Source of the DNA: Candidatus Eiseniibacteriota bacterium
Lineage (GTDB): Bacteria; Eisenbacteria; RBG-16-71-46
DNA: 38,021 bases
NCBI GenBank assembly: GCA_041483195.1
Contig: JBGPFC010000036.1
Coordinates: 1 to 38,021 of the forward strand
Direction: 5' to 3'
This document shows, piece after piece, positions 23,151-26,125 of this stretch. Every line of letters begins with the position of its first letter. Position 1 is the first letter of the stretch. The position numbers were made by a program, and so were the translations under genes. The notes under the pieces were generated by a model that saw only the letters and a program-made list of their open reading frames with translations, did no database searches and was not told the origin of the DNA.

Positions 23151-25616
23151 CTACGTCAGGCCGTAGCGCTTGATCTTGTTGAGGAGCGTGGTGCGGGGAA
23201 TTCCGAGCATGCGCGCGGCCTCGGTGCGCGAGCCGCGCGTCTGAGCGAGCGCTTCGATCACTTTGCGCTTCTCCGACTGCTCCATCTCCTCGAGCAGCGA
23301 GGTCGCGATGCTGGTGTCGTCGAGCTTCAACTCGCCGGCGGCGATGGTGTGGCCCTCCGGGACCAGCAGGACCAGCCGCCGCATCGCGGCCTTCAACTGC
23401 CGCACGTTGCCCGGCCATGGATAGGCGACCAGGCGTTCCCAGGCGGCGTCGGAGAGCGACACGCGCTTCTGCTCCTGCATGCAACTCTCGTCGAGGAAAT
23501 GATCGATCAAGAGCCCCACGTCGCTGCCGCGATGCCGCAATGCCGGCAACTCGATCACCGCCTGGGCGAGGCGGTAGTAGAGATCCTTGCGCAAGCCTTC
23601 GCCGTTTTCGAGCGTCGTTCGATCGCGATTGGTCGCGGCCACCACGCGCGTGTCCACCATGAGATTCTTCGCGGCGCCGATCCGGCGCACCTCGCCCGAT
23701 TCCAGGAAGCGCAGCAGCTTCGATTGGAGGTCGAGCGACATCTCGGCGATCTCGTCGAGGAAGATGGTGCCGCCGTCGCACACCTCGAACAGCCCCGGCT
23801 TGTCGCGCAATGCGCCGGTAAAGCCGCCGGAGACGTGGCCGAACAACTCGTTCTCGATCACCTCGCGGGGCAGCGCGCTGCAATTGAGCGGCATGTAGGC
23901 GCCGCGGCGCGCCGAGTGGCGGTGGATGCCGTCCGCCACCAGCTCCTTGCCCGTGCCCGATTCGCCCAGCACCAGGATCGCCGCGTCGCTCTTCGAGAGC
24001 TTCGCGACGTCTTCCAGCAGCGAGAGCAGGTGCGGGTGGCGTGTCACCGTGCCGAAGGCTTCGCGCGCCCAGGCCGCGCGGCGTTCGAGGTCGGCGGAAA
24101 GGCGTGGCTTGCGCGCGGCGTGACGGCGGGGACTGGACGAGCGGTCCGGATCGAGCGATGCGCCGTGTTCCGCGATGCGTGCGCTCACTTCCGCGAGCTT
24201 TGCCTTCGCCCCCATCCGCTCGAAGTGATCGCGCGCCGCATGATACGCCTCGAGCGCGCCAAGCGGATCCGCAAACTCCGCGGCATGCGGCCCCCGCAAC
24301 CAGTCGCCGTAGCTCATCCAGAGCTTGCCCCACTCGTAGGGCGTCTCGATGTCGTCGTAGTAGGCGAAGCCCTGCGTGAAGTGCTGCTTCGCCTCATGCG
24401 CCCGGCCGATCGCCGCCGCCGCGAGCGCCAGCACGCGATAGGTCGCGGCCTCCTCGTACCGATCGCCCAACTCCCGGCAGTGGTCGAGCCCGGTCTTCGC
24501 CTCGTCGTATGCCTGCTCGACGCGACCCAGCAGCAGATAGCACTCCGCCCGCCGCCACCGCAGCTCCGCGACGATGTCGCCCTTGGGAACGAGAGCGAGG
24601 GCTTTGGGCCAGAGCTGCTCATAACGCTCAAGAGCTTGGTCGGGCCGACCCTGCTCGAGAGAAGCGTCGCCAAGAAACTCTGCTGTGAGCAATGAAGGCC
24701 TCGAATGAGACCGCGGGACCTCCCACGTCTTCCCCGACGCAAAGAGCTGTGTCGCCCCCGCGTAATCGCCCTGGTGAAGAAGAACCATTCCTTTGAGCAA
24801 CGACGCGTACCACTCGAGAATTGTTGACTCCAGCTCTTGTGCGGATTGGAGGCATGACTCAGCAAGGGTGAGCGCTTCAGCCAAGCGTCCCCGCTTCCAC
24901 TCAACGATCGCGAGCAGCCGCTGCGCGATGCTGATGAGGTGCCTAGCATCCTTTTCTTGGTAGATCGCCAGCGCCTGCTGAATGGCTTCCTCTGCGCTTG
25001 ACCATCTACAGAGATCTTTCTCAATTCGACCAAGGTTCTCGAGAGCGTTCGCTTCCGTTATGCGACTGCCCCACAGTCTGGCGGAGACAATCGCCTCAAG
25101 AACGTAGCGCCTGGCGTCGGAACGATTTCCTCGGAACAATTCTGCAGACGAAAGATTGAATGCACACGAAGCGAGCAAGGACTTGTCTGGCCCCGCCAGC
25201 AGTTCGGCCCGAACCGCCAGAAGCTTCTGCTCCGCTTCATCAAGTCGGTTGAGCTGAACGAGACAAGAGCCCTCACAAATCCTCAACTCAGTGAGCGTTC
25301 TTGGCTGCGCCGCGAGCAAGCTCCGCTTCGTCGAATACAGGGTTGTCATGAGGGAGAGCGCGGCTTCGTGCTTGCCCAAGAACGTGAGGGCTCTTGCCTT
25401 CATGACGTCCAGACGAAGTCCCACCTCTCCGGGCTCAAGATCAATTGTTTGGGAACCGGTATCGATCAACTCCAGGAGGGAAGCATAGTCCCCCGAATCG
25501 AGGAGTTCTGCGCAACACGCGACGATTGCCTCGCCGATGGGCGATGTCGAGACAATCGTCGCAGAGTCGTCTAGAAGCATCCGTAGGGCTGAGACGCGCG
25601 ACCGAAGATCATTCAT
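23151..25616 (-). CDS. TPR-sensor sigma54-dependent enhancer-binding protein (TPR - AAA+ - Fis HTH)
   Basis: About 480 aa of TPR-like helices; GESGTGKE, ELFGHVSGGFTGA, IFLDEI, DLYYRL, WPGNVRQL; HTH TEAARMLGIPRTTL. Confidence 0.93.
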   Translation of the reverse strand: MNDLRSRVSALRMLLDDSATIVSTSPIGEAIVACCAELLDSGDYASLLELIDTGSQTIDLEPGEVGLRLDVMKARALTFLGKHEAALSLMTTLYSTKRSLLAAQPRTLTELRICEGSCLVQLNRLDEAEQKLLAVRAELLAGPDKSLLASCAFNLSSAELFRGNRSDARRYVLEAIVSARLWGSRITEANALENLGRIEKDLCRWSSAEEAIQQALAIYQEKDARHLISIAQRLLAIVEWKRGRLAEALTLAESCLQSAQELESTILEWYASLLKGMVLLHQGDYAGATQLFASGKTWEVPRSHSRPSLLTAEFLGDASLEQGRPDQALERYEQLWPKALALVPKGDIVAELRWRRAECYLLLGRVEQAYDEAKTGLDHCRELGDRYEEAATYRVLALAAAAIGRAHEAKQHFTQGFAYYDDIETPYEWGKLWMSYGDWLRGPHAAEFADPLGALEAYHAARDHFERMGAKAKLAEVSARIAEHGASLDPDRSSSPRRHAARKPRLSADLERRAAWAREAFGTVTRHPHLLSLLEDVAKLSKSDAAILVLGESGTGKELVADGIHRHSARRGAYMPLNCSALPREVIENELFGHVSGGFTGALRDKPGLFEVCDGGTIFLDEIAEMSLDLQSKLLRFLESGEVRRIGAAKNLMVDTRVVAATNRDRTTLENGEGLRKDLYYRLAQAVIELPALRHRGSDVGLLIDHFLDESCMQEQKRVSLSDAAWERLVAYPWPGNVRQLKAAMRRLVLLVPEGHTIAAGELKLDDTSIATSLLEEMEQSEKRKVIEALAQTRGSRTEAARMLGIPRTTLLNKIKRYGLT

Positions 25617-25905
25617 TTCGAATGCTCCGAGAGGCGTTCCAGGTCGCCCGTCCCGACAGAGGTGAAGCTTGAGACGCAGCCCGCGTCGCCCTAGTCAGGA
25701 GAGGCATTGGGAGGGGTACTGGGCCAGCCCACAAGATGATCCACTTCACTTGATTTGGCGTAGGTCCATCCGGATCCCCCGCCTGCGGCGGAGAGTGGAT
25801 CGGATCCCGTATCACGATCGCCGCCCCCTCGAGCGGCAGTGCGGCCAGTCCGATGGCCATGATGAGCGCGGCGAACAGCGCACTCTTCCTGCGGTGGATC
25901 TTCAT
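25609..25905 (-). CDS. Small exported pre-peptide (98 aa) with GDPDGP motif
   Basis: RBS GAAGGAG; signal peptide MKIHRRKSALFAALIMAIGLAALPLEGAA; the 3' end overlaps the start of the activator gene (ATGAATGA). Confidence 0.75.
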   Translation of the reverse strand: MKIHRRKSALFAALIMAIGLAALPLEGAAIVIRDPIHSPPQAGDPDGPTPNQVKWIILWAGPVPLPMPLLTRATRAASQASPLSGRATWNASRSIRNE

Positions 25906-26096
25906 CTCAGCGCTCCTTCGGCTTTCCCTCGTGGGGCGGTGGCGCGCCTTCGGGGGCTTCGCCACTCAGACAAAACGACCCGGCGGCAGCGCGGGGTGCG
26001 CGCGGCCGCAAGGTCGCGGAAGGAACCGCAGATCGGGTGAGGGGAAATGCGCATGGCGCCACTCCGAACTAGGTTCAGGGCACGAAAGACGCAGAA

Positions 26097-26125
26097 AAGA
26101 TATTCCCATAGGGGACGGAGGTCAA
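26097..26125 (-). promoter_or_regulatory. sigma70 promoter for the peptide-activator operon
   Basis: TTGACC-17 nt-TATCTT on the minus strand. Confidence 0.65.

Follow-up and report, generated by a model that had tools for sequence, protein, structure and literature searches.

An exported small protein encoded with a TPR-sensor sigma54 activator in Candidatus Eisenbacteria: a conserved gene pair and candidate signal–receptor module

Organization of the locus

The window analyzed here, a stretch of 38,021 nucleotides (nt), is contig JBGPFC010000036.1 of assembly GCA_041483195.1 (hereafter G000), from an uncultured soil and groundwater bacterium of Candidatus Eisenbacteria. Its minus strand carries a unit composed, in order, of a sigma70-type promoter, a structured leader, an open reading frame (ORF) of 98 amino acids (aa) plus stop codon (25609..25905), and the gene for an 821-aa activator (23151..25616). 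The small ORF encodes an apparently exported pre-protein with a G[DE]PD core motif, of which we collected 38 distinct orthologues, and the activator is resolved by Pfam into a tetratricopeptide repeat (TPR) region, an AAA+ core and a Fis-type helix–turn–helix (HTH), the architecture of a sigma54-dependent bacterial enhancer-binding protein (bEBP). The two genes are interlocked, the stop codon of the first overlapping the ATG of the second by 8 nt within ATGAATGA, just as a sequence-only reading of this DNA had described before proposing that they form a peptide-signaling pair similar to the RRNPP systems of Gram-positive bacteria. We report here that the pair is conserved and paralogously expanded, and we posit, at slightly less than an even chance, that it is a self-contained signaling module in which the exported small protein and the cytoplasmic TPR-sensor sigma54 activator are a cognate signal and receptor.

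The source assembly comprises 4.17 Mb in 93 contigs and is 96.8% complete. It encodes one rpoN (Sigma54_DBD match, 3e-63), 22 genes with strong bEBP matches to Sigma54_activat, and four Opp/Dpp-type binding proteins (SBP_bac_5). Omp85/BamA-type proteins are also encoded, which fits the diderm host assumed in the sequence-only reading. The guanine-plus-cytosine (GC) content of the genome is 60–72% and spurious ORFs are numerous.

A family of small exported proteins

The small ORF begins at an ATG at position 25905, and a Shine–Dalgarno (SD) sequence, GAAGGAG (25913..25919), lies 7 nt upstream, in agreement with the good ribosome-binding site noted from the sequence. We refer to the pair of the window and its orthologues as group 1; across 19 tabulated loci (18 group 1 loci, the window included, plus L032), an ATG with an AAGGAG-like site is found in 17, the starts of L018 and L021 having been set by eye. 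The protein can be divided into MKIHRRKSALFAALIMAIGLAALPLEGAA, IVIRDPIHSPPQAGDPDGPTPNQ, VKWIILWAGPVPLPMPLL and a basic tail. Its first 29 residues (25819..25905) form a predicted signal peptide, with a basic n-region (MKIHRRKS), a hydrophobic core (h-region) and an LEGAA end, and are followed by the Pro-rich segment IVIRDPIHSPPQAGDPDGPTPNQ, which contains the core motif G43-D-P-D-G-P48 (25762..25779). A stretch that is hydrophobic by hydropathy, VKWIILWAGPVPLPMPLL (aa 54–71; 25693..25746), comes next, and the remainder (aa 72–98; 25612..25692), delimited by its composition and open frame, is a basic, weakly conserved tail in which the SD and start of the activator are embedded.

Comparison of the 38 orthologues, which range from 86 to 125 aa, shows that M1, G43 and P45 are invariant and that A29 and D46 are each conserved in at least 90% of the sequences. 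Signal peptides were judged by heuristics, namely the Kyte–Doolittle (KD) hydropathy of the h-region, the charge of the n-region and a small-x-small cleavage site; an h-region KD of at least 2.0 and a small-x-small site are present in 38/38 and a net positive n-region in 37/38, so that the signal peptide proposed for the single sequence holds, by these features, for the family. The distance of the motif from the N-terminus is fairly constant (residue 39–50 in 33 of the 38), and approximately 45–55 residues follow this centrally placed motif. Beyond it the group 1 sequences are almost unconserved, and their last 25 residues are basic (mean K+R of 4.6, mean D+E of 1.1).

The motif and the short hydrophobic stretch described in the sequence-only reading are both present. 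The latter is not a consistent transmembrane segment, because the best 15-aa window after the motif reaches a KD of 1.6 in only 16/38 orthologues (median 1.41) and no helix is predicted there. An AlphaFold2 model based on 121 sequences contains a helix at aa 5–22 only, the rest being irregular with a predicted local distance difference test (pLDDT) score of 59–71. The mature protein of about 70 aa is thus predicted to lack regular secondary structure, as expected for a linear-peptide ligand. We also considered a two-transmembrane hairpin composed of a signal anchor, a periplasmic GDPD loop, a second membrane segment and a basic cytoplasmic tail; the basic tail agrees with this topology, and we rejected it given a second segment that is transmembrane-like in 16/38 only and is not helical in the model, so that it survives with a slim chance, as a variant of direct binding between the small protein and the TPR domain.

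The 38 small proteins have no meaningful family match in Pfam or NCBIfam, and a look-up in the ESM Atlas yielded no usable match. A profile built from them recovered 400 clusters at E ≤ 1e-3 (30 at E ≤ 1e-10) from 1.84 billion representative proteins; among the best 150 matches, 149 contain G[DE]Px and 140 contain G[DE]PD, and one match, P0017, is the window's own protein as called, without a name, in public data. None of the 38 matches a PEP-CTERM or other sorting-signal model of NCBIfam and Pfam at E ≤ 1. With the motif central and not C-terminal, we rejected a PEP-CTERM/exosortase sorting signal, though the genome has an exosortase. That gene (EpsH family, 1e-58) lies on contig 4 approximately 6 kb from one for a 605-aa sigma54 activator (70154..77082), and the two probably represent a PEP-CTERM system with its regulator, apparently unrelated to the pair described here.

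The N-terminal part of the ORF has the signature of a coding sequence. Up to six residues past the motif, GC at the three codon positions is 0.66/0.53/0.76, compared with 0.67/0.46/0.78 in the activator gene, and nonsynonymous changes are fewer than synonymous changes in all 14 pairs tested. Together with its conservation, these signatures of coding sequence indicate that the small ORF is a real conserved gene.

A TPR input domain on a sigma54 activator

Pfam identifies TPR families over aa ∼148–372 of the activator (TPR_12 at 1.2e-21), and 27 helices are predicted over aa 1–488, all in TPR-like pairs (26) except for a single short one; we delimit an N-terminal TPR sensor domain of aa 1–490 (24147..25616). 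It is followed by the Sigma54_activat AAA+ core at aa 525–688 (23553..24044; 2.2e-55), an AAA_lid_14 match and a Fis-type HTH_8 DNA-binding domain at aa 778–818 (23163..23285; 4.6e-12). The Pfam search found no REC, GAF or PAS domain, and NCBIfam models match only aa ∼450–820, that is, the AAA+ and HTH region, none reaching its equivalog cut-off. A Walker A motif (GESGTGKE) is located at aa 551, a GGFTGA loop at 597 and a Walker B motif (FLDEI) at 619. The loop is a variant of GAFTGA, which we take to be the defining motif of the sigma54-contact loop, with the F-T-G-A core kept. Judged by its domain content, the protein is a bona fide bEBP, and the domain composition that had been read from the sequence stands. 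Its ATG is preceded at 8 nt by an SD sequence, GGAG. Complete orthologous activators are 773–843 aa long, and the most conserved part of their TPR region is its C-terminal half (aa ∼305–470).

The AlphaFold2 model of the TPR domain is all-helical (27 helices) with a mean pLDDT of 89.5. A Foldseek comparison of this model with the PDB ranks the TPRs of LGN/Pins with extended peptides best (E = 2e-9), followed by consensus TPRs, OGT and APPBP2, with the RRNPP receptors NprR (5dbk) and Rap (4gyo) below all of these, at ranks 48–49 (E = 2–3e-6). As modeled, the fold is that of a peptide-binding TPR superhelix and is not specifically RRNPP-like. Co-folding of the TPR domain (A2) with residues 27–98 of the small protein (A1) gave a score of 0.21 against a mark of 0.32, a result that counts neither way.

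Conservation of the gene pair

The search for the TPR domain covered 61 related genomes, among them that of the window itself, with E ≤ 1e-50 taken as the orthologue level. Matches at this level were found in 23/36 other genomes of the family and in 0/24 genomes outside it. The 23 loci (L009–L031) include 17 with at least 430 nt of upstream DNA, the other six being cut by contig ends, and each of the 17 has a small ORF that opens with a signal-peptide-like segment, contains G[DE]P[DV] and extends to or into the activator start. A scan of 185,579 GTDB species genomes returned 54 loci, of which we examined the 38 whose match reaches the N-terminus; one of these has only 45 nt of upstream sequence and is not assessable. 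The small ORF is present in 36/37 assessable loci, 33 by regular expression and three more that carry GDPN, GDPS, or a partial ORF at a contig end. The sole miss is L077 (1927..2502, minus strand), where a fragment of an IS3-type (rve-type) transposase replaces the 5′ part of the ORF and its last codons (...RPRHE) remain. The two samples overlap in genomes, together yielding the 38 distinct small proteins, and the related genomes are not independent samples. The stop codon overlaps the activator-frame start codon in 17/18 junctions (11 of the ATGA type, four of 8 nt and two of ∼20 nt). The upstream small secreted ORF and the conserved motif predicted in the sequence-only reading are therefore both borne out by the orthologues.

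The genes around the pair are not similarly conserved. Among 73 group 1 loci (L009–L031 and L038–L087, many of which overlap in genome), one shares a flanking gene, a hybrid kinase found at a second copy of the locus in a same-genus genome. We accordingly dropped the idea of a conserved neighborhood or regulon involving the hybrid kinase, a Ser/Thr kinase or the 794-aa secreted protein encoded next to the activator in the window, since none of them is kept beside the orthologues, and we found no conserved protease or transporter gene that travels with the pair in the flanks examined (widely for group 1 and in G000 only for the paralogous groups 2 and 3 described below). Given that group 1 flanking genes are not conserved, the pair itself is the unit of conservation.

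Within one genome, the small proteins of two copies (L009 and L046) are identical at 41/47 residues up to the motif and at 10/41 after it. This pattern is as expected if specificity resides in the motif and in what follows it; an alternative explanation is that the 5′ part has undergone gene conversion. In L023 (558..1383), the small ORF and the first activator codons are duplicated in tandem (period of 526 nt), the copies being 96% identical.

Paralogous modules

G000 encodes two further TPR activators, each with a small ORF just upstream on the same strand. The group 2 module, on contig 30, consists of a small ORF (L002, 787..1209) and an 808-aa activator with TPR–AAA+–HTH architecture (1237..3663). 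The group 3 module, on contig 22 (also fetched as L152), consists of a small ORF (L003, 596..925) and a TPR–GAF–AAA+–HTH activator (1045 onward; 1026 aa from the start used). Both small ORFs have a signal-peptide-like start and the motif in its GDPD or GEPD form (...PPPPGAGDPDIPLP... on contig 30 and ...LPASGEPDVPQAP... on contig 22), and all three small proteins of G000 align at the motif.

Group 2 activators are found in 64/81 genomes across the class (E ≤ 1e-30). Thirty of these loci were fetched, and an ORF with G[DE]PD is present at 21/21 assessable loci among L092–L113, or 20/20 without L107, which derives from an unpublished genome (G038). A distant family contributes eight group 2 loci, and the five that were inspected all have a signal-peptide ORF bearing the variant G[ST]PDETLNP. 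For group 3, the small ORF is present in G000 and, by a script filter, in 14/20 fetched loci. Regular expressions and inspection by eye underlie the motif counts for both groups. In neither group does the small ORF overlap the activator gene: gaps of 22–96 nt separate the two in 17/21 group 2 loci, and the other four ORFs end at or within 8 nt of the estimated activator start. The recurrence of the pair in two paralogous activator lineages and across the class, with a group 1 neighborhood that is not conserved, argues for a self-contained cognate pair.

Promoter and leader RNA

The promoter of the window (26097..26125) consists of TTGACC (26125..26120), a 17-nt spacer and TATCTT (26102..26097), and is the sole promoter-like match in 22800..26500, consistent with the single sigma70 promoter that had been noted. 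TTGAC-like and TAnnnT hexamers align in most (not exactly counted) of 17 orthologous upstream regions. The leader that follows, about 185 nt long (25906..26090), is close to the length first estimated, and both folding and covariation support its structure. In the orthologues the order of elements is promoter, a block CGCC-ATG-nnCGnTTCCCCTCnnCCGA, a long GC hairpin with a T-rich run, a second hairpin, and the SD sequence. The block of the window, ATGCGCATTTCCCCTCACCC (26035..26054), comprises a start codon and a C-rich run; the orthologue alignment gives the consensus CGCCATGnnCGnTTCCCCTCnnCCGA, and the block is unique in the genome at up to one mismatch. Downstream of it lies a terminator-like attenuator element (25968..26016), composed of a long GC hairpin (25976..26016) and TTTTGTCT (25968..25975).

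The leader of the window has a minimum free energy of −88.5 kcal/mol (z = −3.39), and 0/200 shuffled sequences fold as well. RNAalifold, applied to 13 leaders, predicts 16 base pairs, 10 of them with compensatory changes, and covariation is seen in the hairpin stem. A hairpin of −15 kcal/mol or lower with a T-rich run is present in 28/37 leaders, mostly 69–83 nt upstream of the ATG (range 61–106). A search of Rfam with the leader found no family at E ≤ 1, the five matches at E 2.8–9.7 all being far below gathering scores. Our reading of these features is that the leader is a putative transcription attenuator or a processing/stability element.

Two further features of the leaders are recorded here as observations. 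The conserved block may be the start of an upstream ORF (uORF; 25902..26054, minus strand, beginning MxxSPHP), with a conserved start codon, an SD-like CGGAG 7–8 nt upstream, and codons x-x-S-P-[HRL]-P. Its frame is free of stops up to the small-ORF ATG in 15/16 orthologues, against 9/16 for each other frame; it ends in an ATGA overlap in the window and is in frame with the small ORF in 6/16, and two public gene calls (P0003 and P0008) start the small protein at the uORF start. The second feature is a short hairpin, CGGAG-xxGGAx-CUCCG, whose loop contains GGA; it immediately precedes the AAGGAG SD sequence and lies ∼10–35 nt upstream of the small-ORF ATG (e.g., L013, L014, L017 and L022). A regular expression finds it in 17/38 leaders, approximately five of which represent the SD sequence paired with CUCC before the ATG, and it is not present in the window's own leader. 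Such a hairpin resembles CsrA-bound translation initiation regions, and a CsrA gene is present in G000.

Sigma54 promoters and surrounding genes

Downstream of the group 3 activator lies a near-consensus sigma54 promoter, TGGCACGTCGGTTGC (L152 13357..13372, plus strand), 48 nt upstream of a four-gene operon encoding proteins of 275 aa and 173 aa, a DUF4384 protein and a protein of 318 aa, which shows that a sister module has promoters of this kind in use beside it. A second group 3 site, TGGCACGGAGGGTGC (L152 12840..12855, plus strand), is found ∼220 nt after the activator stop, with no ORF behind it. A similar site, TGGCATGCAGGGTGC (L151 10751), follows the group 2 gene; having no obvious ORF behind it, it may drive a noncoding RNA. 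A sigma54 site is present in 3/26 group 2 loci with at least 350 nt of downstream DNA, and on this count we dropped a downstream sigma54 promoter as a general trait of group 2 activators.

The gene directly downstream of the activator (20585..22969, minus strand) encodes the 794-aa protein mentioned above, which has an N-terminal signal-like segment and no Pfam or NCBIfam family. Elsewhere in the window, a 778-aa protein with Schlafen AlbA_2 and NB-ARC (STAND NTPase) domains adjoins an IS3-type integrase (6073..8409 and 9615..10793, plus strand) in a stretch of lower GC (0.57–0.58) that may be a defense or mobile island, and an 890-aa protein (34201..36873, minus strand) carries 13 FG-GAP-like repeats and a C-terminal FlgD Ig-like domain.

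Interpretation of the pair

We propose that the small protein and the TPR activator are a cognate signal and receptor on the basis of several observed features: signals for cotranscription, stop and start codons that overlap, a signal peptide for export, a Pro-rich mature part that is predicted to be unstructured and holds the invariant core, a TPR domain of the peptide-binding type joined to the AAA+ and HTH domains of a complete sigma54 activator, and rpoN in the same genome. Direct binding of the small protein, whole or in part, to the TPR domain by whatever route is in our estimate about as probable as not, or marginally less so. The specific route that we favor, possible but doubtful on its own, resembles that of RRNPP systems: the small protein is exported and processed, and a short peptide re-enters the cell via an oligopeptide permease. 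Equally tentative is the broader proposal that the modules are a peptide-pheromone system that arose independently in a diderm candidate phylum and provides each cell with three or more paralogous peptide/receptor channels. Such a system can be read in several ways, of which quorum sensing is one.

In a mechanism of this kind, the pre-protein would be exported and then cut by signal peptidase I, and a fragment containing the G[DE]PD core and its variable flanks would be the ligand of the TPR superhelix. The short peptide would re-enter through an oligopeptide permease; the four Opp/Dpp-type binding proteins permit peptide import, and no more. Occupancy of the TPR domain would switch AAA+ oligomerization and, in turn, sigma54-dependent transcription of genes located elsewhere, and the leader hairpin would add a layer of transcription attenuation upstream of both genes.

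Several points weigh against a cognate signal–receptor pair or its pheromone version, and we are cautious for these reasons. Peptide binding, processing and import are themselves inferred. With a diderm host, a signal from outside the cell would need two passages across the outer membrane, and a pre-protein with a mature part of ∼70 aa is long for a pheromone precursor. Three systems that coexist in one cell share an identical G[DE]PD core, so that the flanks would have to confer specificity. In groups 2 and 3 the small proteins have C-termini that are conserved, amphipathic and aromatic-ended (...WFVRF, ...YLGVGW and ...YLRVAF), which a simple pheromone model leaves unexplained. No good sigma54 promoter of the form TGGCAC-N5-TTGC is found near the pair of the window. 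The distribution of group 1, in 23 of the 36 other family genomes, is patchy, and it was not found in the same-genus genomes G001 (93% complete) and G002 (80%). Codon-position GC is flat after the group 1 motif (0.61/0.56/0.62), despite which the frame is open to the activator start in 18/18 loci; RNA structure in the 3′ half of the ORF, considered as a cause of the missing codon bias, is unsupported, the RNA between the motif and the activator SD having no unusual structure (z = +0.47).

The alternative that survives best, which we nevertheless consider unlikely, is that the small protein acts in the envelope without direct binding, for example as a periplasmic reporter or decoy substrate with a fate that another sensor reads, or as a coexpressed envelope factor, and that the TPR domain senses something else. 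The hydrophobic, aromatic-ended C-termini conserved in groups 2 and 3 (...VRF, ...GVGW, ...RVAF) speak for such a role, as does a small-protein family without a known domain; conserved aromatic C-termini are reminiscent of those recognized by the BAM machinery or by periplasmic PDZ proteases. However, the small gene has stayed directly upstream of a TPR activator in three independent paralogous lineages when the group 1 flanks are not conserved, which is hard to explain without a specific one-to-one relation, and no conserved protease or transporter gene accompanies the pair.

Rather unlikely, too, is a secretion-coupled partner switch or sensor of Sec stress, in which the TPR domain binds the unexported pre-protein, which export at its normal pace would clear from the cytoplasm, and slowed export leads to its accumulation and to switching of the activator, with no need for reimport. 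A cytoplasmic receptor whose partner has a signal peptide suits this scheme, the overlapping stop and start codons would couple the synthesis of the two proteins, the motif has a near-constant position at residue 39–50 in most orthologues, and the problem of the outer membrane is avoided. Sec export, however, is normally fast and constitutive and would leave a small cytoplasmic pool, the genes of groups 2 and 3 do not overlap, as the gaps in 17/21 group 2 loci attest, and the conserved core lies in the exported part of the protein and not in its signal peptide.

Control in cis, in which the small ORF is a uORF or secretion monitor like SecM, MifM or VemP that sets the level of the activator and its peptide has no function in trans, appears improbable. 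The stop/start overlap in 17/18 junctions, a post-motif tail that stays open without codon bias or conservation, and a Pro/acidic-rich motif ∼34–38 residues after the start of the h-region are all compatible with it. The motif is nevertheless ∼150 nt upstream of the activator SD, the intervening region folds no better than its shuffles, the downstream gene is not a secretion factor, and in groups 2 and 3 the small gene is retained with no overlap and its product has a conserved C-terminus. Finally, the idea that the small ORF is not a gene and merely an open frame in GC-rich leader DNA, which draws on the high GC and many spurious ORFs of the genome and on a C-terminal half without a coding signature, can be set aside as very improbable given the activator-like codon-position pattern of the N-terminal half, its excess of synonymous changes, the strong SD in 17 of the 19 tabulated loci, and signal-peptide features and a motif kept in 38 distinct sequences and 400 library clusters.

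Comparison with known systems

It is known that sigma54 activators can respond to phosphorylation, to small molecules or to protein antagonists, and bEBPs with non-REC sensors or protein antagonists include XylR/DmpR, NorR, PspF–PspA and NifA–NifL. The activator of the window shares with these proteins the AAA+ core, a GAFTGA-type loop, the Fis HTH and a layout in which an N-terminal domain or partner gates ATPase assembly. It differs in that its sole input is a TPR superhelix of ∼490 aa linked to an exported small protein, and in reaching no NCBIfam equivalog cut-off. In the part of the literature open to our searches, we found neither a bEBP with a TPR input and a coupled exported peptide nor a sigma54 activator that reads a dedicated exported peptide, so that the statement in the sequence-only reading that no characterized system has this architecture stands within those sources. 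The small-protein family, the TPR input class for bEBPs and the conserved structured leader without an Rfam family are undescribed.

In FlgM/sigma28, ExsE–ExsC–ExsD–ExsA, and the TPR chaperone IpgC with MxiE, the exit of a partner from the cytoplasm sets the activity of a regulator. Should the TPR domain bind unexported pre-protein, the likeness would lie in a small partner that leaves the cytoplasm and, for IpgC, in a TPR protein; these systems differ in using type III export and not a Sec signal, and none of them is known to have a TPR-fused sigma54 activator. SecM, MifM and VemP are secretion-monitor arrest peptides, and like the small ORF they are uORFs with an N-terminal export signal before a translationally linked regulated gene. 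In the window, in contrast, the downstream gene encodes a transcription activator, the motif is ∼150 nt from the SD, and no stable RNA structure lies between.

The closest parallels to a cognate signal–receptor pair are the RRNPP(A) systems (Rap–Phr, NprR–NprX, PlcR–PapR and AimR–AimP) of Firmicutes, phages and plasmids. In both, a gene for a small Sec-exported pre-peptide lies beside that of a TPR receptor that acts in the cytoplasm and controls transcription, a short core of the peptide is conserved between variable flanks, and several paralogous pairs occur per genome; NprR and Rap are also among the structural matches of the window's TPR domain. The window's pair, however, has a sigma54 AAA+ activator as its output where the RRNPP systems have an HTH_3 repressor/activator or a phosphatase, its pre-protein gene lies upstream and encodes ∼100 aa with the conserved core mid-protein, its host belongs to a diderm candidate phylum, and no sequence-family link was found, generic TPRs (LGN, OGT) being better matches. 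PMC10075063 gives as the RRNPP signature a propeptide of 10–100 aa, a Sec signal, a receptor of 250–500 aa, TPRs and directly adjacent genes, describes peptide signaling through cytoplasmic TPR receptors as a trait of Firmicutes (Gram-positive bacteria), and discards clusters with an N-terminal TPR, the RRNPP TPR being C-terminal to the effector domain. Set against that signature, the pair agrees on four of the five points (propeptide size, Sec signal by heuristics, TPRs and adjacency) and departs from it in receptor length (821 aa vs. 250–500 aa), and its domain order is reversed, the TPR region (aa 1–490) preceding the AAA+ and HTH domains.

The interpretation offered in the sequence-only reading, an RRNPP-like pair with a sigma54 output, is thus partly supported: the conserved, overlapping and paralogously expanded pair and the four shared features speak for it, receptor length and domain order do not, and the Foldseek rank of NprR and Rap counts neither way. 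Given the receptor length, the reversed domain order and the different output and host type, we do not file the pair as a member of RRNPP, although by analogy it may work like one. If it does, RRNPP-type logic would be found here for the first time beyond the Firmicutes and for the first time with a sigma54 output, in a module that links peptide/TPR signaling to sigma54 activation in an uncultured phylum and that, being compact and self-contained, is testable outside its host.

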